A DNA stretch of 64,000 bases from an uncultured Holophagae bacterium (lineage in GTDB: Bacteria; Acidobacteriota; Thermoanaerobaculia; Thermoanaerobaculales; Sulfomarinibacteraceae). A model generated the notes under the pieces. It was not told the DNA's origin and searched no databases. It was given only the letters and a program-made list of their open reading frames with translations. Position 1 is the stretch's first letter, and each line of letters begins with the position of its first letter. Shown here in pieces: positions 1,405 through 64,000 of the stretch. A program made the position numbers and the translations under genes. The stretch covers positions 74,828 to 138,827 of the forward strand of contig CAVQBD010000002.1 in assembly GCA_963710645.1 (NCBI GenBank), read 5' to 3'.

Positions 1405-1613
1405 CGATCGAAGAACGAAGAACGAAGAACGAAGACCCCCACCCGCCCGAAACGAGAGATGGCGCGACCGGCGGGCGTGCAGTCTTCGACATTGTTGGGA
1501 CCCTGAGTGTTGGAGTGGCCATCTCGTGGGATCCCAACAATGTCTAAGGGGGCAACCTCGGGGAGCGCTTGAGGGAGATGGGCGCGTGCGTCCGGAAACG
1601 GAAACGGAAACGG
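1405..1613 (-). repeat. Mosaic intergenic repeat, copy 1
   Basis: Contents in order: (CGAAGAA)x4 at 1409-1435; C-box 1436-1449; module C (reverse complement) 1461-1480; 13-bp-stem hairpin 1488-1500/1532-1544; module B (reverse complement) 1556-1585; (GGAAAC)x3 at 1593-1613. Homologous by direct comparison to 50412-50558, 52880-53146, 29824-29962 and 63893-64000. Confidence 0.85.
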
Positions 1614-2677: not shown

Positions 2678-4864
2678 TCAGTTCCTCCGCGCGCCACCGG
2701 AGGACCTGGAGGCTGACGAAGGTGCCGACCGGGGCGCCGATGATCCGCCGCTTGACCGTCCAGCACTGCTCGATCGTCCGGCACTTGATGAGCGACCGGC
2801 CGACGAACGCGACGGCGCTGAACCCGCCGAGGATCTTCCGGAGGAAGAGGACCGGCCGGTCGAGGCGGTGGGATTGCGCGAGGGGGCGCTGGTCGACCCC
2901 GTGGATCCCCGCGGGGAAGTGGCCGCGGTGCGCGGCACGATCACCGGCCGCGACGTCGTCGCTCCGCTCCTCGTGGTGGATGCCGGGCCCGAGGTGGTAG
3001 GTGTGGAGGGCTGTGACCGGTTGGTTGGTGCTCGGTATACGGAGCCGGACCGAGTGATTCCGGAGCGTCCAGTGACCTGTGTCGTCGAGGACCGAGGTTC
3101 GACAGTGGTGGAGGGCCGGGTCCGGGGCACGAACGGATTGGGGTTACCGGTGTTCTGGCTTCGTGTGCTGTCGGTCGGTCGACCCGGGATCGAACGGTAG
3201 GAGTTGGTTTCTGACCGTCCCTCGGAGCTGTGCAGGGGAGACCCGGATGTGGTCGAAAGGGTTGGTTCTGATCGCCTGTTGCCGTTCGCATTCCGGGTTG
3301 TCTGCGACCGACCGACGTCGCCGGTTGGGGCGGCCGACCGCCGGCTGATATCACTGGTTGTGGTCGGCTCGACGAGCCGGAGGGCGTCCTCGGGACGGAG
3401 GCTGTCGTCGCGCGCCATGATCGGCGTGAGGTCACGATCGGTGGTTCGTTCGATTCCGCGGAACACTCTCTCGAGTTCGCGGGTCGTTTGTTCTCTCGAC
3501 GGCGGTGCGGTTTTCAGGGGGTCGGAAGAAACGATGCCGATGTCGCTTCGGCCGCGCAGCGCATCATCGCCGCGTTTGACAAGGCGTGACAGATTTGGGC
3601 TCGCGAAGTCCCGGTCCGAGACGACGTTCCAGGCCGAGCTGTCCATGTCGGCGATCCTCGTCCGTCCCTTCAGCTGCAGTGCCGAGTCGTCGGGTCTTGG
3701 CAGGCTGGACCGTCGAACGGCGCCACTATCCGCGCCGCTGCCACCGCCCGCGCCTGGCCTCGGAATGACGTCTCGGCGAGGCGTCTGACCGCCGCCGCCC
3801 CCGGGATGACTCGGGTATCCAGGCTGGCTGGGCCAACGGGGATAGCCGTAGAAGTGGCAGTAGCGGGGCCAATACCAACCCCAGTAGTAACCCGAGGGAC
3901 ACCAGCCGACCCAGCCGGGACCCCAGCCCCAGTTCACCCATGCCGGACCCCAGCAGTTTCCCCATCCCCAGACCCACCCGACGCTGGCCGAGAGGAACCA
4001 GGTTCCGTAGTGGTACGGCAACCATCCCCACGGCTCGTAGGAGACCCACGACCATCCGGTAGGGGTCCAGTACCACCGGCCTGCTGTGTAGGGGCGCCAG
4101 GCAGTGCTCACCGTGGGCTGCCACGCCCAGGTGTTGTACTCCTGGACGTAGACCCAGTTGCCGTAGTTGTCGAGCTGGGCTGCCTGTCGTTCGTAGCGAA
4201 CGTCCACATGTTGGCTGCTCTCGCCAAGAAGGACCTGACGCCGCTGTTCGACCCAGGAGGCGAAATCGTCGCTCCAGGTCAGATGGGGCTCTGTGCCGAT
4301 GACCTCGCCGTCTCGCACCTCGGTCGCCGACTCAGCCTGGATCAAGACGCCGCCTGCGACCGTGGCAGCTTCGGCAAGGCCCTGCCACACCTCGAGGCGC
4401 AGGCCGCCCGACGGCAGGGCGAGGATCCGGTAGAGACCGGTGTCGTTGAGGTAGACGGTGGCGGACCTGCCGTCGACCCGAAGGGCTTCCCCGCTCAACC
4501 GATGCTCGTTGATCTCGACCATCATCGTGCCCTCGGCGAGGTACAGCACCGACCGATCAGAGTTGTTGTCACGGCTGAAGGCGACGGCGTCCAGACTCAG
4601 CGTGGAGTACTCGTCAAGCCACACGATGTTGCCGTCTGCGAGGACTATCTCCATGCGGGTTTCGCGAGCGGTATCGATCCGGTCGCCGGCGACCAGGGGC
4701 ATATTGATCACCGCTTCCACCGAATCTTGCTGGGAGGCCGGCTGGACGGTTGCAAAGCGCTCCAGATACGAAATGTAGCTCAGGGAGGTCGGGTCGTCTC
4801 CTTCGGAGGCCACGACAGACACCGCGAGGGCGATGATTGCAGCCGAAATGAGGGTATTTTTCAT
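2678..4864 (-). CDS. Secreted FecR-like domain protein with a W/Y/G-rich central region and an S/R/T/P-rich disordered C-terminal half
   Basis: Signal peptide (MKNTLISAAIIALAVSVVASEG). FecR-like segment (GDRIDTARETRMEIVLADGNIVWLDEYSTLSL). Trp-rich block (WRPYTAGRWYWTPTGWSWVSYEPWGWLPYHYGTW ... YYWGWYWPRY). About 330 aa of low-complexity tail ending in SSAGRS-type repeats. Confidence 0.6.
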   Translation of the reverse strand: MKNTLISAAIIALAVSVVASEGDDPTSLSYISYLERFATVQPASQQDSVEAVINMPLVAGDRIDTARETRMEIVLADGNIVWLDEYSTLSLDAVAFSRDNNSDRSVLYLAEGTMMVEINEHRLSGEALRVDGRSATVYLNDTGLYRILALPSGGLRLEVWQGLAEAATVAGGVLIQAESATEVRDGEVIGTEPHLTWSDDFASWVEQRRQVLLGESSQHVDVRYERQAAQLDNYGNWVYVQEYNTWAWQPTVSTAWRPYTAGRWYWTPTGWSWVSYEPWGWLPYHYGTWFLSASVGWVWGWGNCWGPAWVNWGWGPGWVGWCPSGYYWGWYWPRYCHFYGYPRWPSQPGYPSHPGGGGGQTPRRDVIPRPGAGGGSGADSGAVRRSSLPRPDDSALQLKGRTRIADMDSSAWNVVSDRDFASPNLSRLVKRGDDALRGRSDIGIVSSDPLKTAPPSREQTTRELERVFRGIERTTDRDLTPIMARDDSLRPEDALRLVEPTTTSDISRRSAAPTGDVGRSQTTRNANGNRRSEPTLSTTSGSPLHSSEGRSETNSYRSIPGRPTDSTRSQNTGNPNPFVPRTRPSTTVEPRSSTTQVTGRSGITRSGSVYRAPTNRSQPSTPTTSGPASTTRSGATTSRPVIVPRTAATSPRGSTGSTSAPSRNPTASTGRSSSSGRSSAGSAPSRSSAGRSSSAGRSSSAGRSSGGSSAPRSAPSSASRSSGGARRN

Positions 4865-5115
4865 CGTCCACCTCCATGGACGATTGGAAAGACTGCAACG
4901 GGCGTGCCAGGTTCGATGACCAGGTGCTGAAGATGATCTCGAGGTCCCGAGGTCCTGGAGTTGCGGGGTTTACCAAGACCGCAGGACCAGGTGCCGAGCC
5001 CTTCGCCGCGAATTGCAAAGCACGGCAATCGAGGCACCGGCCAGGATCACAGGCCCTTTTTGCGCGGCGTATCCTGAATCGAAGTGCCCTGCGTTGACCG
5101 TTGGCTGTCCAGACC

Positions 5116-9282: not shown

Positions 9283-11238
9283 TTAGTCCGGCCGAAGCGT
9301 TCCTGCACTTGGCATCAGGCGGATCGACCAAGAACCTCGGTTTCCGAAATCGAACCCGTCGGAGAAGAGGACCGGCCCTGGTGTTGGGGTTGCCGTCGGG
9401 GTCGCCGTGGGCGTGGGTGTCGACGTCGGTGGAACGGCCGTCCAACTGGGGGTTGGTGTAGGTGATGGCGGCACCGGCGTGCTTGTCCTGGTTGGAGTAG
9501 CCGTTGGTGGAACTGGAGTATTGGTTTGTGTCCTGGTGGCCGTCGGGGTTCGAGTCGGTGTCGGAGAAACCGGCGTGCCTGTGGAAGTTCGGGTTGGAGT
9601 TGGTGGAACCGGTGTGGCGGAGGGAGTTCGGGTTGGAGTTGGTGGAACCGGCGTGGCGGAGGGAGTCCGAGTTGGTGTGGGAGGAACCGGTGTGGCGGAG
9701 GGAGTCCGAGTTGGTGTGGGAGGAGCCGGCGTGGCGGAGGGAGTCCGAGTTGGTGTGGGAGGAACCGGTGTAGCGGAGGGAGTCCGAGTTGGTGTGGGAG
9801 GAACCGGTGTGGCGGAGGGAGTCCGAGTTGGTGTGGGAGGAACCGGCGTGGCGGAGGGAGTCCGAGTTGGAGTTGAGGTCGGTGTTGGCGGAACAGGGGT
9901 ATTTGTTCTGGTGGGCGTCGGGGTCGGTGGAACGGCGGTCGCCGTGGGTGTGGGTGTCGGCACCGGTCCGCTGGCTACTGTGAGGTCCAACTCATAAAGT
10001 TGCGGCATGTCTGACGTGCCGCCTGCAATTTCGAGGTAGTAGGTTCCGTCGCCGCTGGTCAGGGCGATATTCTCGAGGGTTTCAGGGAGTCCCGCGCCGG
10101 TCGCGTCGGAGGACGCCAACTCGGTGGACCCGTTGACATCCAGCACCCGAATACTCAGATCATGGATGGCCAGGGAATCGAAGGGAGTGCCCGAGGAGCA
10201 ACTCCCGCCGGAGTTCTGAGGGCCGCTCAGATAGGTCCCGCCGACAGGGGAGACGGTCACACTGATCGACGCTCCCGAACCGACTGAGAAGCTGAAATCA
10301 TCGATGTCATAGTTGTCATCGATGGACACGTCAAGAATGGCCATCGATCCTGACGGCGATCCGATATGAGTTGATGACGCGGGCGAGTCATTGTGTTCGA
10401 AGAAGTCACCGTAGCCGCGATTCGCGGCCAGGATGTCGTCGTGCTGTGGGCCCTCGAAAGCACCTGAATAGTACGGCTCCATGAGTTTGGTCTGGTTCAC
10501 CGGACAGACGTGCTGCAGACCGATCCCGTGGCCGTGCTCGTGGGAGACCACGTTGCGCAGGCGGATCGAGTTTCCGGAGGTGTTCGAGAAGAAGGAGTCC
10601 CCGGTGTCGATCACCATGTCTCCGATGTTTGGATAAAAGTTGTAGGCGAGGATGCCTGATCCGCCGTCGATGTTGTGACCCGAAATTCGAACGTCGCCGC
10701 GGCCCCCGATCTGGCCCTCGGCGGCGGTGAACGACGCGCCGTCGTCATTCGGCTCGTAGACGTAGGTGATACCCGTGAGTTCCCCCCAACGGTCAAAGAC
10801 CTGCTGGAAAAGGGGGAGCCAATTGGCTTCGTTGCCATAGACGCCGTCTAGGTAGGCACGAAGGTTGCTCGGGGAGTCGGCCTCACCGGCGTAACCCAAG
10901 ATGATGGTGCCGTCGGGAACGATGCTCCAGGTCAGGGTCGTCGGATCGCCCTGGCCGAGGCCGCTGCCGTCGGTTGCAGTCTGAGACCATCGGAGGTAAT
11001 CGGAGAACTGATACTCGGTCTCGGACCCTCCGGACAGGGAGTGATCGAAGCGCGTGAACGACGCCTTTGTGACGGTCTCCTGGATATACCAATCGGGCGT
11101 GCCTGGTTTGAAGCAGAGCACTGGCCCGGAGCCCTGGTTGCAGGCGGCCGGCGATGAGCCGTGCGCGCTCGACGACATGCTGGACAGAAGTGCGATGCAC
11201 CCGATGGTCCCTGCGATGACTGCAAGATTGATCTTCAT
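9283..11238 (-). CDS. Secreted zinc metalloprotease (HExxHxxGxxH, matrixin/M10-like) with a long P/T-rich repeat linker and a short C-terminal motif
   Basis: Signal peptide, zinc site [14 protein letters not shown], a beta-rich domain, then about 190 aa of PT-rich linker that includes about 7 units of [13 protein letters not shown]. Ends in [16 protein letters not shown]. Confidence 0.75.
9583..9890 (-). repeat. 39-bp (13-codon) in-frame tandem repeat inside the protease gene
   Basis: Near-identical units GGGAGTCCGAGTTGGTGTGGGAGGAACCGGTGTGGCGGA start at 9661, 9700, 9739, 9778 and 9817. More diverged units flank them. Confidence 0.9.
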
Positions 11239-15191: not shown

Positions 15192-15363
15192 GGTCTTGGG
15201 GTCTCGAGGTCCTGTGGCCAGACCCCGAGACCTGTTGTTGAAGAAATTCGGAATTCGAAATTCGGAATTCGAAAACCCTCCCACCCGTGTGTGAACAAGG
15301 AATATGGAGCACCGCCGCCCACCCGGGATAGGGAGTCGTTACACGTTCAACGTTAAACGTTAG

Positions 15364-16289
15364 GTTCATCCGGGGAATCGTGAGGTGGGGTTTCTGCGTG
15401 CCCGTCTCCGTGCGGGGATTCAGGCGGCAGGGGCAGCGACGGCAATCAGGGACAGCGTCCGTGATCGGCGGCTGCGTCAGCGATCAGGGGCCGCGGCAGT
15501 GATCAGCTGGGATTGCTCCGGGTTGCGGTCGCTGTCCACCGATACTGCCATCTGCCCCGGACGCCGGTTGCTGTCCCTGTCCCGGCCGCTGCCGACTGCC
15601 GCTGATAGCTGTTCCTCAGAGCGCATCGTGATCACCTCCGGGTCGTTCGCTCGGAGGGAATCGTCGATCTGTCTCCGGATGTCAAGGGCAAGACAAGTCG
15701 TCGGACGACCCTTGACATCCGGAGAAAGATCGACGTCGAGAGAGTTTCATGGACGACCCGGAGGTGATCATGATCGACGCGTGCCAAGGCAACCAACTCA
15801 TCGTCTACGGCAAGGCCATCGAGGCGGCCGGGGAAGCCATCTCCCTCGTCAAACGAGTGCCGGCTCCCGTCAAGAGCCTCGCCGATCAGGTGATCAGATC
15901 GGCGTCATCGGTTCCCGCCAACATTGCAGAAGGCCACGGCCGAACGGGCCGGGATAGACTCCATCATTGGCGAATCGCCTACGGCTCCGCGAAGGAGGTC
16001 GATTGCCATCTTCGCCTCCTGGTTCATGCTGGGGCGATAGACTCCACTCGCGTGGGCGATTCGCTACAGCTCTTCGATCAGGTCCGTGCCATGATCTGGC
16101 GTTTGCTGAACCCAAGGCCCTGATTGGGGCTCCTCGCACGAGCAATTCCGGATGCTGGCGCCGGGTCTACCGCTGGTAGGCTCCGGAACCGCACATGACG
16201 TCGGTGCGATGGAACATCTCGAATATCACATTTCTCATTTCTCATTTCAAATTCAACCACTGCCCATCTCACGGAAATCCGGATGAACC
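15364..16289 (+). repeat. About 0.93-kb unit bounded by imperfect 27-bp inverted repeats
   Basis: Left end GGTTCATCCGGGGAATCGTGAGGTGGG (15364-15390). Right end CCCATCTCACGGAAATCCGGATGAACC (16263-16289), which is its imperfect reverse complement. ACGTT-type short repeats lie just outside both ends. The unit contains module A, nested hairpins and the four-helix-bundle ORF. Module A (15382-15662) is homologous to 52621-52835 and, inverted, to 63645-63891. Confidence 0.8.
15749..16123 (+). CDS. Four-helix-bundle protein (23S rRNA intervening-sequence protein family; same fold family as DGR Avd)
   Basis: 124 aa with family-typical segments (IRSASSVPANIAEGHGR ... AYGSAKEVDCHLRL). The family assignment is from memory of this family's conserved NIAEG and E..yhL pattern. 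Confidence 0.75.
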   Translation: MDDPEVIMIDACQGNQLIVYGKAIEAAGEAISLVKRVPAPVKSLADQVIRSASSVPANIAEGHGRTGRDRLHHWRIAYGSAKEVDCHLRLLVHAGAIDSTRVGDSLQLFDQVRAMIWRLLNPRP

Positions 16290-16496
16290 AAACGTTAAAG
16301 GTCCGGACATCTCGACGTCTGATGAGGACCCCTAATATTAACGTGTAACGTTCAACGTTGAACTTCGCCGAGTCCCGAGTCCCGAGTCCCGGGTTCGGTG
16401 CTGATGTTCGGGACGGGCTGGGGGGGTCGACATTCGACATTCGACATTACCTTTCGACCGGCTGGGCTGGCGGGCTACCGCCCACCGCCTGCTACC

Positions 16497-18986: not shown

Positions 18987-19303
18987 CGACACCTTCTGGT
19001 CCGTGAGCCACCGACCGTTGAGTTGAGAATCAAGAGTCAAGAGTCGAAGGTTGTCCTGGCCACTGGCCACTCGCTGGTGACGGCTGGTCACCGCGGCCGG
19101 AGGCCGCGAGTAACCGCGGCGAACGCGGTCCGAAAATTGGCGCCACGAGTGTCACCGAACCGCCCGCAGACTGCCAATAATGTCTGGGTCTGTGAGCCGC
19201 AAGCCGTGAGGCGCGAGCCTCGCAAACGGGGATCTTCGTTCTTGGTTCTTCGATCTTCGTTCAGGTGGGCGGGTGGGGGATCCGGCATCCGGCCGGGTGG
19301 GGG

Positions 19304-29701: not shown

Positions 29702-30030
29702 CCCCCGCCCGCCCGATCCAAGATGCAAGATTCCCCGCCCGGCCGGAACATCAGCTCGGGACTCGGGACTCGGGACTCGGGCCCCGTCCCAGCCGGATAC
29801 GAGATGCGAGATCCGAGATACATGATCCCGCGCCCACCCGGAGAGGGATAAGCGCGATGGGCGGGCGTGCCAGGGGTGGCTCCCTCGGGGAGCGCGGTTG
29901 GGAGATGGGCGCGTCGGAGTCAGCAATTCGAAGCGAACGCGCGGGTCGGTGCCCGGCGCCGACTCGCACCTGCCACACCCTCTACACTTTCTACACCCTC
30001 TCCACCGGGCGCGCGGGTGTGGGGGATAAT
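29702..30030 (-). repeat. Mosaic intergenic repeat copy lacking the hairpin
   Basis: Heptamer tracts (CGGGACT)x4 around 29755-29785 and (CGAGATN)x3 around 29797-29820. C-box 29824-29841. Module C (reverse complement) 29852-29871 directly abuts module B (reverse complement) 29883-29912. GTGTAGA-type repeats around 29975-30005. Confidence 0.8.
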
Positions 30031-45917: not shown

Positions 45918-46047
45918 GCGAATAGTAAATAGTAAATAGTGAATAGTAAATAGTGAATAGTGAATAGTGAATAGTGAATAGTCCCCCTCCCGCCCACCAC
46001 GATCGTGGGGAGCACTTACTATTCGCTATTCACTATTCGCTATTCAC
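45918..46047. repeat. Heptamer microsatellite hairpin between convergent genes
   Basis: (RAATAGT)x9 at 45918-45982 faces (ACTATTC)x4 at 46016-46047, with about 28 of 30 positions paired. The loop carries CCCCCTCCCGCCCACC and the 12-bp palindrome CCACGATCGTGG. Confidence 0.9.
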
Positions 46048-48718: not shown

Positions 48719-48861
<143 letters not shown>

Positions 48862-50365: not shown

Positions 50366-50590
50366 CCGGGTTCCGAAAAAGTCGGTGCCAGGCACCTCCG
50401 AGAGAAGCATCTTTCTCCCCATGCGCTCCCCGAGGGAACCACCCCTGACACTTTTCGGGACTCATGGATTTGGAGAAGAGCCTCGATGCGATCAACCCGA
50501 AAGTGTCAGAAGTGGCACGCCCGCCCGTCGCGCCCTCTCGCTTCGGGTGGGCGGGCAGCGTTGCTGTCTACTGTTTACTGCCAACTGCCT
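50366..50590 (+). repeat. Mosaic intergenic repeat copy between convergent genes
   Basis: GTTCCGG GTTCCGA at 50366-50379. Module B core 50421-50437. Hairpin 50445-50459/50496-50509. Module C 50514-50534. G-box 50544-50555. CTACTGT-type heptamers at 50565-50590 run into the 3' end of the symporter gene. Confidence 0.8.
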
Positions 50591-52217
50591 GGCTGGGTGG
50601 GGGATTCGGAAACAGGAAACTCACCGCCACGGCGGCACCTGCCGCCAGGAAAAACGCCGGAACCAGCTCGTAGAGGAAGTGGAGTCCCCATTGTTGCACC
50701 AGCCACCATGACGTCAGGGTGAGGGCTGCGGCGGCGAGGGTGGCTGCGCTGTGACCCACATCGAATGAGTCGGTGATGCGCCCGATGATCAGAATGGTCG
50801 CGGCCAAGACGATCACCGCCCATGGCACTTTGGCAAATGCCTCAGGACTCTCCGCCGCCGTTCGCCCCAGCTTCCAGGCCACGGTCACGCCGACGCCGGT
50901 CAGCATGCCCGCGAGCGCACCGAAGCGACTCATCTTGGTGTCGAAGGCCGCGAACAGCACCAGGGGAGCGAAGGCTGCCCCAAGCCCGGACCACGCGAAA
51001 AGTACGAACCAGAACACGAGCCTGACCTCGGTCAGGGCGACCAGGACACCGAGGATGCCGATCACCACCACCGTCCAGCGGCCCAGGCGAAGGCTGCGCC
51101 GATCGTCGGTCTCACGGCCAAGGGTCTCCTCGACGATGTCATAGGAGACCGCCGATGCCGCCACCAAAAGTTGCGACGAAACAGTGGACAAAATGGCCGA
51201 GATTACGGCAGCCAGAAGCAGGCCCGCGAGGACCGGGTGGACGAGCTCGAGGGCCATCACCATCAGGGCCTGCTCGCCATCTGCCAGAGTGGGCAGCATG
51301 ACCCGTGCCGCCAGGCCCACCAGCCCGGCGCCGTAGAAGACGGCGATGCCCCACAGCATGGCGATCACTTTGAGGCGCCGGATTTCGGTCTGAGATTTCG
51401 TGGCCATGTAGCGGGTCACCACGTGCGGCATGCCCGGATAGCCGAGGCCGATGCCGAGCTCACCAACGATGAACCCCCACAGGGCGGGTCCGACCCGGTC
51501 TCCGCCGACGGTCAATAGGTGGGGGTCGATGGCCCCGAGTCCGTTGATCAGAGCACCAAACCCGCCGAGCCGGGCGATGGCATACAGCGGCAGGGCGATC
51601 AGGGCGAGCGCAACGAGCAGGCCTTGGAAAAGGTCGGTCCAGGCCACGGCGCGGAATCCGCCCATGAAGGTGACCGTGATAATGACCAGGGCACCGATCA
51701 TGACACCGAGCAGGTAGCCGGAACGGCCCTCCATCCCCAGACTCGACGAGAACGCCTTGCCGGCGGCGGTCATCTGGGCCGCGACATAGCCCAACATGCA
51801 GACCAGAATGATGGTGGTGGCGGTCACTCTGAGCACGTTGTGGGGGTCGCCCCAGCGGCGGGTGATCACATCGGTCATGGTGATCGAACCTTGCTGTGCC
51901 GACAGCTTTCGAAGCCGCGGGGCCACAACGTACAGGTTCACCAAATAGCCCAGCAGGCAGCCTGGCGCATACCACAGGCCTGCGAGGCCATGGGTGTAGG
52001 TCATCCCCACCGCGCCGAGGGTCACCCAGCCGGATTCTGAGCTTGCGGTGGAGGAGATCCCCGCTGCCCACGCTCCGAGCGATCGTCCGGCCAGGTGGAA
52101 GTCTTCGCCGCCGTGGGTGCGCCGACCGGCGCGCCAGCCGATGATCAGGAGGATGCCCAGATAGACCACCATCACCGCGCCGACGGTTGAGATCGTCGAA
52201 GGAGTGAGGGCGGTCAT
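50568..52217 (-). CDS. Sodium:solute symporter (SSS) family transporter
   Basis: 549 aa with about 13 TM helices and an SSS-type N-terminal region (HLAGRSLGAWAAGISSTASSESGW). Confidence 0.85.
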   Translation of the reverse strand: MTALTPSTISTVGAVMVVYLGILLIIGWRAGRRTHGGEDFHLAGRSLGAWAAGISSTASSESGWVTLGAVGMTYTHGLAGLWYAPGCLLGYLVNLYVVAPRLRKLSAQQGSITMTDVITRRWGDPHNVLRVTATTIILVCMLGYVAAQMTAAGKAFSSSLGMEGRSGYLLGVMIGALVIITVTFMGGFRAVAWTDLFQGLLVALALIALPLYAIARLGGFGALINGLGAIDPHLLTVGGDRVGPALWGFIVGELGIGLGYPGMPHVVTRYMATKSQTEIRRLKVIAMLWGIAVFYGAGLVGLAARVMLPTLADGEQALMVMALELVHPVLAGLLLAAVISAILSTVSSQLLVAASAVSYDIVEETLGRETDDRRSLRLGRWTVVVIGILGVLVALTEVRLVFWFVLFAWSGLGAAFAPLVLFAAFDTKMSRFGALAGMLTGVGVTVAWKLGRTAAESPEAFAKVPWAVIVLAATILIIGRITDSFDVGHSAATLAAAALTLTSWWLVQQWGLHFLYELVPAFFLAAGAAVAVSFLFPNPPPSQAVGSKQ

Positions 52218-52336
52218 TCTCCGGCCCTATTGCGCAGAGTTTCGCGAGCGGCGCTGACAGCGACGATCAGGGTCAGGGCGAGGGGGAAGCCCCACAACAG
52301 GAGGTGGGCGCCAAGAGTCAGGGAGTGCTCTTCCAT
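52214..52336 (-). CDS. Candidate 40-aa hydrophobic peptide coupled to the symporter
   Basis: Product MEEHSLTLGAHLLLWGFPLALTLIVAVSAARETLRNRAGE. Its stop overlaps the symporter ATG (ATGA). Small membrane ORFs upstream of SSS genes are a known arrangement. Not in the track because it is under 60 aa. Confidence 0.45.
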   Translation of the reverse strand: MEEHSLTLGAHLLLWGFPLALTLIVAVSAARETLRNRAGE

Positions 52337-52384
52337 ATCGTCAAGCCTACCAGCGTTGTCCGCTGGTGGTCAGGTCGCGCATTT

Positions 52385-53146
52385 CGAAATTCGATGTCCC
52401 CCAACCCACCCATGAGTCCAATGTCCAAAGTCGAAAGTCGAAAGTCGCCATCACCCACCCGACACGGCTGGGGCTTTGCTCTCGGGGCCCCTTGTCGATA
52501 CCAGGTGCCGCCACGGACACTGCAATCTCGCTGGGTTCAATCTACCGAATTTCGAAGCGCCGATTCTCCGACCGCGCTCCCCGTGAGGATGGGAAGGAAC
52601 TTTCAACGTTTGGTTCATCCGGGAAAGCGTGAGGTGGGGTTTCTGCGTGCCCGTCTCCGTGTGCGAAACAGCGACGGCAATCAGGGACAGCGTCCATGAT
52701 CGGCGGCTGCGTCAGCGATCGGGGGCCGCGGCAGTGATCAGCGGCGATTGCCCCGGATTGCGGTCGCTGTTCACCGATGCTGCCATCTGTCCCGGACACC
52801 GGTTGCTGTCCCTGCCCCGGCCGCTGCCGACTGCCCGTGACGCGGATTGCTGGCGCGGACGCTGACGCCGGAATCCGGGCCCCCGCGTTCGCTTCGATGC
52901 ACTGACTTCGACGCGCCCATCTTCCAACCGCGCTCCCCGAGGTTGCCCCCTTTAACATTGTTGGGACCTCAACGAGGTGGATTTCTCAATGCCTTGAATC
53001 CCAACAATGTTAAAGACGGCACGCCCGGTCAACGCGCCCTCCCCGCCACCGGGTGGGCGGGTGGCAAGGTTCAACGTTTAACGTGCAACTCTCATCAACG
53101 GCACGCCCGCCTATCGCGCCCCCGTTCCGGGCGGGTTGGTGGGTGC
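52385..53146 (+). repeat. Largest mosaic intergenic repeat array
   Basis: In order: (AGTCGAA)x3 around 52430-52450; left-end motif GGTTCATCC at 52612; module A 52621-52835; module B 52913-52942; 16-bp perfect hairpin 52951-52966/52999-53014; module C 53018-53038; G-box 53049-53064; a second module C 53100-53120; a second G-box 53128-53146. Confidence 0.85.
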
Positions 53147-53174: not shown

Positions 53175-54059
53175 ATGTCGCGGCGGATTTTGCTGACTGT
53201 GATGGTGGTTGCGATGGTCGCCGGTCCGGCGACCGCGGAGGATACGGCAGGTCCATTTCACGTGATGGTGGCCAATGACGACGGCATCGACGCGCCGGGC
53301 ATCGCGGCGATCGTCAAGGAGTTGGCAGCGGATCCGAGCTACCGCGTGACCGTGGTGGCGCCGGCCGAGCAGCAGAGTGTCACCAGCCATTCTCACGTGA
53401 CCAGACGCGAGGTTCCCGTGCGGCCCCATGCTCCGATGTCCGGGGCCACGGCGTGGTCGGTGGACGCCACCCCGGCGTCTGTGGTCCGCATTGGCCTGAC
53501 CGCGGTGCTCGCCGACGATATGCCCGATCTCGTGGTGTCGGGCATCAACCTGGGCGAAAATAATGGTCTGGGCGCATGGACCTCCGGGACCGTGGGAGCG
53601 GCTCGTGAAGCCCTTCTGGTGGGGGTGCCCAGTATTGCGCTGTCGCTGCAGCTCGACTGGGACGATCCGCAACCAGACTTCGAGACGGCGGCCCGGTGGT
53701 GCAAGCCGATCATAGATGCTGTCCGGCAGGACGGCCTGCCGAGAGGGGTCCTGCTAAACGTCAACGTGCCGCGAGACACCGAGGCCATCCGCGGCTACCG
53801 GTTGGCGCGAATGGGTCTGACCCCTCCGGAAATTGCGCGTTTCGACCTGGTTCGAACTGAAGACGGAACCACGTGGTACCGCAGCCGCTGGCGGCCTGCG
53901 CCCACGGCGGAGGCGGGAACCGACACCCGCGCCCTGCTCGATGGCTGGGTCGCGATAGCGCCCATCGGCCTGGATCAGACGGATTACAGTTCGTTCCCGT
54001 TGATTCAGGGCCTCGAAGAGGCCGTCATTCCGGCCGTCAGCACCGTTGGAATTCCCTGA
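53175..54059 (+). CDS. surE: 5'/3'-nucleotidase SurE with an N-terminal signal peptide
   Basis: SurE motifs (VANDDGIDAPGI, SGINLGENNG, SGTVGAAREA) preceded by MSRRILLTVMVVAMVAGPATAED. GAAGGAGG lies upstream of ATG 53175. Confidence 0.8.
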   Translation: MSRRILLTVMVVAMVAGPATAEDTAGPFHVMVANDDGIDAPGIAAIVKELAADPSYRVTVVAPAEQQSVTSHSHVTRREVPVRPHAPMSGATAWSVDATPASVVRIGLTAVLADDMPDLVVSGINLGENNGLGAWTSGTVGAAREALLVGVPSIALSLQLDWDDPQPDFETAARWCKPIIDAVRQDGLPRGVLLNVNVPRDTEAIRGYRLARMGLTPPEIARFDLVRTEDGTTWYRSRWRPAPTAEAGTDTRALLDGWVAIAPIGLDQTDYSSFPLIQGLEEAVIPAVSTVGIP

Positions 54060-58999: not shown

Positions 59000-59085
59000 C
59001 TCGATTCTCGGTCCTGGAACATCGGTTCCGGACCTCTGCCATATCCACCAAGACAAGATTCGATGTTCCAGGACCGAGAATCGAG
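59000..59085. repeat. 25-bp perfect inverted repeat between convergent genes
   Basis: CTCGATTCTCGGTCCTGGAACATCG (59000-59024) faces CGATGTTCCAGGACCGAGAATCGAG (59061-59085), with a 36-nt loop. The right arm ends at the nrdR stop codon. No U-tract. Confidence 0.9.
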
Positions 59086-63542: not shown

Positions 63543-64000
63543 ACGTATGAGGTATGAGGTATGGAGGGTGGAAGGCGAGTACAGACGGTTACAGGTCATT
63601 CGATATTCGAAAATTCCATCGCACCGGCCTCGTGTGCATTTTTGGATTCCCTCCCAGCGAACGACCCGGAGGTGATCACGACGCGCTCCCAGGTACAGCG
63701 ATCAGCGGCAGTCGGCAGCGGCCGGAACAGGGACAGCGACCGGTGTCCGGGGCAGATGGCGGCATCGGTGATGGGCGACCGCAATCCGGGGCAATCCCAG
63801 CTGATCACCGCCGCGGCCCCTGACTGCTGCCTCTGATTGCTGTTCCCGGCCGCTGTCCCTGAACGCCATCGCCGCCGCTGCCATTCGGGCACGGGCGTTC
63901 GCCTCGATTCGTTGACTGAGACGCGCCCATCTCCCAACCGCGCTCCCCGAGGGAGCCCCCCTTAACATCGCTGGGACCTCAATGAGGTAGATTCCCCAAT
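63543..64000. repeat. Mosaic repeat copy truncated by the window end
   Basis: (GAGGTAT)x3 at 63545-63565. Module A in reverse orientation (63645-63891). Module B forward (63923-63952). Left hairpin arm TTAACATCGCTGGGA at about 63962-63976; the right arm is beyond the window. Confidence 0.8.

Follow-up and report, generated by a model that had tools for sequence, protein, structure and literature searches.

The hairpin between the B and C boxes of this DNA seems to be the central, variable-stem module of a new modular interspersed intergenic repeat of Acidobacteriota, similar in kind to BOX and BIME elements, in which the stem would play an architectural role; we assign this reading a probability of roughly 0.55. 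The pairing of the two arms is real and maintained. Comparison of many copies showed that the stem is an almost purely Watson-Crick helix, formed in one register, whose sequence differs between subfamilies. More than 90 copies were found in total, in Acidobacteriota MAGs (titled Holophagae) and in metagenomes from marine and other sediment, soil, freshwater, and sludge. The literature searched contained nothing on the sequence of the B/C repeat and nothing on interspersed repeats of Acidobacteria/Acidobacteriota.

Organization of the repeat in the 64-kb window

The window, that is, the whole 64-kb stretch of DNA analysed here, is chromosomal, has a GC content of 62%, and carries ordinary genes, including rtcB, surE, an SSF symporter gene, an aminotransferase-like gene, a SpoU methylase gene, and two tRNA genes. 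The B box reads GCGCTCCCCGAGG-kwGCC (also written GCGCUCCCCGAGG-kwGCC), and the C box starts with GGCACGCCCG. The 13-mer core of B, GCGCTCCCCGAGG, occurs at exactly five sites, 1556(-), 29883(-), 50423(+), 52930(+), and 63940(+); the chance expectation for an exact 13-mer of this kind is far below one per 64 kb. This corresponds to a density of about one copy of the repeat per 10-13 kb. A long inverted repeat begins 9-10 nt after the B core in four of the five copies. Module C (GGCACGCCCG..., or TGCACGCCCG... in the 1.4k copy) follows the hairpin in three of the four hairpin-bearing copies, and the fourth, the 63.9k copy, leaves the window before module C. In the remaining copy, at 29.8 kb, only GAGCCACCCCT lies between B and C. 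The order of the parts is upstream palindrome, A/B boxes, variable hairpin, C hairpin with a G-rich box, and often a heptamer array. The stem-loop is 57-65 nt long and has a fixed place between B and C. The features of the window are as follows.

50386-50398, plus strand: upstream palindrome GGTGCCAGGCACC, a module lying upstream of B in many copies and duplicated in the relative L241
50423-50435, plus strand: B core GCGCTCCCCGAGG of the 50.4k copy
50436-50513, plus strand: variable hairpin and its base, 50.4k copy; arms 50445-50459 and 50496-50509
50514-50555, plus strand: module C of the 50.4k copy, GGCACGCCCGCCC...GGGTGGGCGGG, itself a hairpin with a G-rich 3' arm
52930-52942, plus strand: B core of the 52.9k copy; upstream of it, the repeat starts at about 52872
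52951-53014, plus strand: hairpin of the 52.9k copy; perfect 16-bp arms 52951-52966 and 52999-53014
53018-53061, plus strand: first unit of module C, 52.9k copy
53098-53143, plus strand: second C unit, 52.9k copy, preceded by a heptamer spacer of AACGTTC type; surE starts shortly downstream (ATG at 53175)
1438-1481, minus strand: module C of the 1.4k copy, TGCACGCC variant, then (TCTTCGT)n on the same strand
1488-1544, minus strand: hairpin of the 1.4k copy; 13-bp arms 1488-1500 and 1532-1544
1556-1568, minus strand: B core of the 1.4k copy
29827-29871, minus strand: module C of the hairpin-less 29.8k copy
29872-29882, minus strand: B-C junction GAGCCACCCCT of the 29.8k copy; the distal stem is missing
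29883-29895, minus strand: B core of the 29.8k copy; upstream of it, the repeat extends to about 29945
29946-29964: palindrome GTCGGTGCCCGGCGCCGAC of the 29.8k copy
63940-63952, plus strand: B core of the 63.9k copy
63962-64000, plus strand: left arm TTAACATCGCTGGGA (63962-63976) and loop start of the 63.9k hairpin; the window ends here
52538-52586, plus strand: B-like fragment GCGCTCCCCGTGA, joined straight to a G-box and AACTTTC/AACGTTT heptamers

An earlier reading of the sequence alone had described the hairpin in three complete copies, with a perfect 16-bp stem, a 13-bp stem, and a stem with one bulge, and a further left-arm variant cut by the end of the window. All the sequences and coordinates that it quoted were found in place, including the fourth arm, which is TTAACATCGCTGGGA. 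The interval on which it centred, 50412-50558, holds the B core, both arms, and module C of the 50.4k copy. The stem of this copy consists of basal CCAC/GTGG pairs, then two C·A mismatches, and then the arms, of which the left carries one additional T. The stem of the 1.4k copy grows upon folding from 13 bp to about 16 bp plus 3 bp. In the 29.8k copy, the junction together with the TGGC that opens C gives a mini-hairpin, GCCA-CCCC-TGGC, capped by a tetraloop. The fragment at 52538-52586 lacks both the hairpin and the 5' half of C. The hairpins of the window are stable on either strand; relative to dinucleotide shuffles, the RNA fold z values on the written strand are -2.7, -5.9, and -6.6. The B and C boxes are direct, not complementary, relatives, and CGCCCATC...CGCTCC is common to both.

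Other repeated elements are found close to these copies. Copies of the palindrome GGTGCC(A/T)GGCACC are found repeatedly upstream of B, often two of them with a distance of about 45 nt (50386-50398 and 29946-29964 in the window, both sites examined in L241, and many metagenome copies), and they contain TGGCAC, which module C also has at its start. GGG tracts with single-base spacers make up the 3' arm of this module (50545-50555, 53051-53061, and 53130-53143; about 1146-1170 in L104; also L203), and the G-box of the repeat reads GGGNGGGNGGG. Some copies of module C read GGGTGGGTGGGTGGG, a textbook G-quadruplex motif as predicted from sequence, which uses bases of the C hairpin and would compete with it. 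The 64 kb also contain about 30 tandem arrays with a 7-nt period, whose heptamers differ from array to array (48719-48861, 45920-46045, 1409-1435, 29755-29821, 52415-52447, 16229-16448, 19233-19262, and about 20 more). Their units include (TGCCTAC)x20, (GAATAGT)x9 facing (CTATTCG), (CGAAGAA), and (CTCGGGA), among others. In copies from both the window and the metagenomes, such arrays follow immediately upon the G-rich box GGGTGGGCGGG at the end of module C. The period-7 arrays resemble the STRR repeats of cyanobacteria.

In addition, a repeat of 170-310 nt with 88-92% identity occurs at 15349-15662, 52598-52840, and 63645-63829 (inverted). It adjoins two of the B/C elements, in direct orientation at 52.6 kb and inverted at 63.6 kb, and is thus a further independent module of the intergenic mosaic. 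Beside the repeat at 15434-15662 lies a long hairpin, 15662-15735 (CTCCGGATGTCAAGGG...CCCTTGACATCCGGAG), which has neither B nor C; its arms are like the CCCTTGACAT arms of the family turned inside-out, with TTGACA by the loop. Between two convergent ORFs, at 59000-59085, lies an inverted repeat with perfect 25-bp arms, CTCGATTCTCGGTCCTGGAACATCG, and a loop of about 35 nt. Its sequence is unrelated to the B/C family, and it matched only the structure part of the family model (E about 0.1). A 651-aa minus-strand ORF contains a 39-nt tandem repeat at 9551-9870 (8.2 copies, 91% match), which probably encodes a repetitive protein domain.

Covariation of the two arms across the family

Copies outside the window were collected in three ways. 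A scan of species-representative genomes with the B core alone (15 specified bases) proved too loose: among the at least 120 matches listed, nearly all were chance matches in DNA coding for ALPE, and only those in L067 (an "Acidobacteriota" MAG), L071, and L104 (both MAGs titled "uncultured Holophagae bacterium") were true. Each of these three has B, a hairpin at the same place, and a C-like box, and the MAG copies carry stems absent from the window, such as GGTATGACGTTGTGCG/CGCACAACGTCATACC. In L067, about five B-hairpin-C copies are packed into 1.5 kb (3430-4920), partly through a 680-bp tandem duplication, so that B/C elements can also cluster. The metagenome scan used B core - N58-88 - GCACGCCC, a pattern that leaves the stem unspecified and gave at least 120 matches; the invariance of the B and C cores in this set is partly a product of the pattern. 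These matches were sorted by their flanks alone, namely kwGCC after B and G before C. Among the matches listed, 69 had the conserved flanks, all with stems of 7-19 bp (at most one mismatch), and 45 were chance matches in coding DNA, with stems of 5-9 bp. Finally, a profile search gave 13 further complete copies chosen without the pattern; all 13 contain the hairpin in register, several of them with new stem classes.

The main alignment contained 73 copies, and the helix was recovered from it by RNAalifold. A structure of 17 pairs was counted, 14 of them variable. Paired cells amounted to 91.4%, as compared with 31-45% when the 3' partner was slid by 1-3 columns. Changes on both sides were observed in 13 of the 14 variable pairs, and doubly changed cells numbered 240, against 80 in shuffles; none of 500 shuffles reached the observed value in any of five covariation measures. 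A trimmed alignment of 48 copies, in which the full helix of 21 pairs was considered, gave a similar picture: 85.6% of cells were paired (32-44% when slid), with double changes in 16 of the 21 pairs. Therefore, the arms are not independent simple repeats, since pairing is kept across sequence change far above the controls. The sequence-only reading had proposed that both arms change together and had named missing covariation, or arms that are independent simple repeats, as grounds for giving up this proposal; the alignment of many copies bears the proposal out.

The sequence of the stem is highly diverse. The 73 copies contain 46 distinct left arms, which fall into at least 10 clusters. Within each of the larger clusters, the B tail takes several forms (GAG/TTG/GTG), an indication of recombination between modules. 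None of the columns of the loop reaches 70% conservation across the 73 copies. The partial conservation of the 5' part of the loop (CCTCAAYGAGGTRGATT) that had been described earlier is seen between the 52.9k and 63.9k copies and more weakly in the 1.4k copy; it is a feature of a subfamily and not of the family.

It had also been argued that this compensatory change places the pairing under selection. Conservation of pairing beyond the controls is established by the alignments; selection itself is likely, and copying from arm to arm could also keep the palindromes perfect. According to the latter explanation, the stem is maintained mutationally: intrastrand template switching or gene conversion between the arms copies one arm, both arms change at once, and compensatory change is then uninformative on function. 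The near-perfect stems, the small number of single-step G·T intermediates (15 of 1533 cells), and the existence of other long perfect palindromes in the genome, such as that with 25-bp arms at 59000-59085, are consistent with such a process. However, the polar C·A mismatch and a C·C mismatch at the base of the stem persist across subfamilies, although homogenization should erase them. Furthermore, at least 10 stem classes from different habitats agree in register, in length, and in their place between B and C, and the loops diverge freely while the stems stay paired. Purely mutational upkeep is thus considered quite improbable.

The hairpin as a part of the repeat

The sequence-only reading regarded the hairpin as a separable insertion with inverted ends, and copies with and without it as filled and empty sites. 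At 29852-29912, C is indeed joined directly to B on the minus strand with no hairpin, as had been described. The interpretation as an insertion is contradicted by the stem base, the polarity, the breakpoints, and the flanks, and in our view it is not supported: the hairpin is better regarded as a built-in, deletable part of the repeat. If it were a miniature transposable insertion with terminal inverted repeats lodged between B and C, the 29.8k copy would be the empty target. The inverted ends of 13-19 bp, the lack of the hairpin in one copy, and a TG on both sides of the "insert" (CCCC-TG-ACAC...AAG-TG-GCAC) would agree with this. This TG dinucleotide is, however, the only candidate for a target-site duplication when the filled copies are compared with the 29.8k copy, and it is no real duplication. 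Assessed as a MITE, the hairpin alone has terminal inverted repeats (arms 13-19 bp), but its flanks are B and C and not a target-site duplication, and no conserved arms at many sites and in both orientations were found.

The base of the stem is informative in this respect. The three outermost pairs are formed by the invariant GCC of B and the GGC of C, and a fourth basal pair, A-U (GCCA...TGGC), is present in half of the copies. The stem base is thus made of B and C themselves, which counts against an insert. Within the repeat, variation is greatest in the arms and least in the flanks, so that the arms are hypervariable and the supposed target is invariant; a transposon in a target site would show the opposite pattern. 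In addition, the polarity of the mismatch near the stem base is fixed. In 59 of the 73 copies, a C in the 5' arm is opposite an A in the 3' arm, and overall there are 85 C·A against 11 A·C, so that the hairpin is found in one orientation only. A search for the arms elsewhere in the window gave nothing above chance, and the covariance model of the family found no member outside the B/C context in the window. Among all copies seen with both B and C, the boxes abut only in the 29.8k copy, and the 13 copies chosen without the pattern are all filled.

Comparison with syntenic relatives provided two other hairpin-less forms. L241 is an ENA contig with a symporter homologue 93% identical to that of the window, and it is collinear with window positions 62355-40530; the corresponding values for L244, L242, and L243 are 90%, 82%, and 80%. 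The states of two orthologous sites are as follows.

50.4k site (aminotransferase stop to symporter stop), window: full element
50.4k site, L241: C almost base for base, no hairpin, other upstream modules
50.4k site, L244, L243, and L242: no element
surE-upstream site, window: full element
surE-upstream site, L241: full element, with a hairpin of a different subfamily
surE-upstream site, L244: upstream palindrome, arm remnant, and C-spacer-C; B and the left arm are missing
surE-upstream site, L243: nothing

These sites show that the whole repeat is gained or lost at orthologous positions and that its modules are shuffled between relatives. At the 50.4k site, L241 reads ...GATGCGCTCC-AGAAC-GGCACGCC, in which B is cut after GCGCTCC, and its upstream modules are a pair of GGTGCC(A/T)GGCACC palindromes. 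The junction at the surE site of L244 reads ...GTGCTCGTACCC|GGCACGCC and, judged from these letters, looks like the end of the right arm of a GGTA-type hairpin that has lost B and the left arm. Hairpin-less forms are thus rare, three in number (the 29.8k copy, L241, and L244), with three different breakpoints, one running into B and one leaving a remnant of the right arm. Three different breakpoints are expected for deletions in and around a palindrome and not for an unoccupied target; this choice between deletion and a primitive form is based on three cases, of which one is a clean hairpin-less copy. At the rtcB-downstream site, which holds the hairpin-less 29.8k copy, the whole element is absent in L247, L248, and L249, and therefore this site cannot tell whether the empty form is ancestral. 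Taken as a transposable insertion, the hairpin is very improbable, and this explanation is largely refuted.

The surE-upstream site of L241 also bears on how stems change. Its stem shows a swap of T-A to A-T, from AACATTGTT/AACAATGTT to AACAATGTT/AACATTGTT. The loop is only about half identical to that of the window, as compared with about 90% in the flanks. The L241 version closely matches a copy in L104. A tblastx comparison revealed no synteny between L104 and the window, so that its similar copy is no evidence of orthology, and replacement by another subfamily is as likely as compensation in place.

It should be mentioned that the gene calls of the relatives include a 40-aa gene directly in front of the SSF symporter gene, whose start it overlaps (window about 52217-52340, minus strand; L242 917-1039; L244 4804-4926; L245 154-276). 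This arrangement suggests a small, conserved ORF coupled to the transporter.

Comparison with known systems and possible function

The closest in logic to the B/C repeat seems to be the BOX element of Streptococcus pneumoniae, as judged from its published description. BOX has the arrangement boxA - boxB(n) - boxC, with constant outer modules and an optional middle module that folds largely alone; boxB is conserved in sequence and present in 0 to 8 copies (PMC3049150). BOX elements are dispersed among unrelated genes, their module content varies between strains, and they are described with TIRs and as causing target-site duplications (PMC3049150). The B/C repeat likewise has constant outer modules and an optional middle one (B, hairpin, and C in four of the five window copies, B and C in one). 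Its middle module differs in being present once or not at all and in being hypervariable in sequence but conserved in structure, and none of the TIR and target-site duplication features of BOX was found for it. Homology to boxA, boxB, and boxC, which belong to another phylum, is implausible for a repeat of a genome with 62% GC.

REP/BIME elements of Enterobacteria and Pseudomonas are mobilized by RAYT (Y1 HUH) transposases, and their proposed mode of action is the recognition of a folded single strand by a protein. REP palindromes are 20-40 nt long, have small loops and a conserved 5' tetranucleotide, and are conserved in sequence within a genome. The B/C repeat resembles them as a high-copy set of imperfect intergenic palindromes in mosaics, in both orientations (five copies per 64 kb). 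In contrast, its stem is 16-20 bp long, its loop is about 30 nt, and its stem sequence varies within one genome; neither a guide tetranucleotide of the GTAG type nor a RAYT gene was identified within the 64-kb window. Correia elements (NIMEs) of Neisseria and enterobacterial ERIC (IRU) are small intergenic repeats, mosaic, inserted or deleted between strains, and forming long hairpins when transcribed. They have conserved TIRs, with a TA duplication in Correia, and the whole element is the palindrome, whereas the B/C repeat has a variable stem between constant single-stranded boxes.

The attC sites of integrons, 57-141 nt long, have the core sites R''/R' = RYYYAAC/GTTRRRY. The B/C hairpin is attC-like in that its structure is conserved, its sequence is variable, and its palindrome is imperfect, with mismatches of fixed polarity that could mark the strand. 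At the positions of the core sites, however, only the TTTAAC...GTTAAAG subfamily (52.9k copy) comes near; the 50.4k copy has CTGACAC...GTGTCAG, and most metagenome copies are without GTT. No cassette array or intI context was seen, and the copies are scattered on both strands among housekeeping genes.

A conserved asymmetric mismatch marks the strand in single-stranded DNA recombination sites such as attC and IS200/IS605 ends. In the upper stem of the B/C repeat, 27 of 618 positions are non-Watson-Crick (5 G·T, 7 A·C, and 15 others). Wobble pairs are thus not enriched, and the upper stem resembles a palindrome at the DNA level more than a typical RNA helix. On the complementary strand, the C·A of the stem base would be a U·G wobble, and pairing would rise from 85.9% to 91.2% if it is this strand that folds. 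In module C, on the other hand, it is the written strand that carries the G·T of the helix GCCCGCCC/GGGTGGGC. These two helices, that of the variable stem and that of C, contradict each other in pointing to opposite strands, so that wobble pairs give no call of strand or chemistry, and an assignment of the strand on this basis was abandoned.

These observations bear on the alternative that B-hairpin-C is a functional structured RNA, either a multi-copy small RNA or a UTR element with a role in the stabilization, processing, or termination of neighbouring mRNAs. Selection for pairing would in this case act on the RNA, and the variable stem would be a peripheral helix, reducible to a tetraloop-capped stub such as that of the 29.8k copy. 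The strong covariation, the conserved unpaired boxes around a helix of free sequence, the stable folds, and the wobble that replaces the polar C·A (59 of 73) on the complementary strand are in line with this. In addition, the 50.4k copy, whose module C ends 13 nt from the SSF symporter stop codon, and the 29.8k copy lie directly after stop codons of complementary-strand genes. The comparable BOX repeats are transcribed and predicted to fold (PMC3049150).

Other features do not fit an RNA well. No family of Rfam 15 matches the element: only the two tRNAs of the window reach gathering scores, and scans at lax E-values (up to 5) gave only spurious miRNA-hairpin matches far below threshold. The scans of the hairpins revealed no promoter-like site and no U-tract behind them. 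The upper stem contains almost no G·U, and the helix of module C favours the other strand. The copies lie in both orientations relative to genes. By crude gene calls, the downstream gene is on the opposite strand in 37 cases and on the same strand in 21, and the upstream gene is on the same strand in 32 and on the opposite strand in 25; copies with their C end directed at the end of an opposite-strand gene are at most weakly in excess (37 vs 21). Furthermore, presence or absence of the whole element and shuffling of its modules among close relatives are typical of selfish repeats. A functional RNA is considered somewhat unlikely on balance.

Several simpler identities were rejected. The copies are intergenic and dispersed among unrelated genes, with no protein family recurring in the neighbouring ORFs. 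A gene-specific cis-regulator (riboswitch or leader) is incompatible with these unrelated neighbours, and coding potential with the indels of the hairpin, which break any frame, and with an ATG that is not conserved. A sigma-54 promoter read from the TGGCACG in C does not have the GG-N10-GC spacing (TGGCACG-N4-TTGCW); as read from the sequence, the -12 position is CA, CG, or GG in the subfamilies, and TTGC is lacking. The TTGACA-like left arm does not fit a sigma-70 promoter, and the promoter scan found no sigma-70-like site at the hairpins. An intrinsic terminator is not indicated, as the stem encloses a loop of about 30 nt, GGCACGCCC and not a U-tract comes after the right arm, and the terminator scan found none at the hairpins. 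Inspection by eye also spoke against Tn3-like inverted repeats and an HDV-like or other pseudoknot between B and C, which are direct and not complementary. The sole B-C pairing proposed by RNAalifold (GCG/CGC) lies in columns fixed by the search pattern and is broken in L067.

We favour the reading of the hairpin as the variable middle module of an intergenic repeat. Its stem would serve to fold one strand so that the B and C boxes are brought together at the foot of the helix, and a trans-acting factor may read this B/C junction and not the sequence of the stem. A recombinase or transposase acting on single-stranded DNA is a candidate for this factor; a host protein or an RNase might take this role if the element is co-transcribed. 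No trans-acting enzyme for the element was identified in the 64 kb of the source genome. New versions of the stem would spread as subfamilies, and recombination through the constant flanks would exchange them between loci; the hairpin-less copies would be deletions of the palindrome. A bolder proposal is that B-hairpin-C is the recognition structure of an undescribed system working on a folded single strand, either a new class of structured ncRNA widespread in Acidobacteriota or an end or target of an ssDNA recombinase, in which the boxes are read and the stem serves as an identity tag of the subfamily. The G-box and the heptamer arrays could then be by-products of its activity. We consider a system of this kind unlikely.

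Acidobacteriota are among the most abundant bacteria of soil and sediment. The B/C element has a helix of free sequence, and its structural signal is among the cleanest obtainable from sequence alone. This makes it a candidate for structure probing of RNA or single-stranded DNA and for a search for the factor by which the boxes are read. Strain typing could make practical use of it as a marker, and it should caution annotation pipelines, which would call it a novel riboswitch-like RNA. Modular intergenic repeats are a known kind of element; new here is the family, and its unusual twist is a middle part conserved in structure but free in sequence, like attC. In genomes that share about 90% identity in their proteins, the intergenic regions are reshaped by this family.
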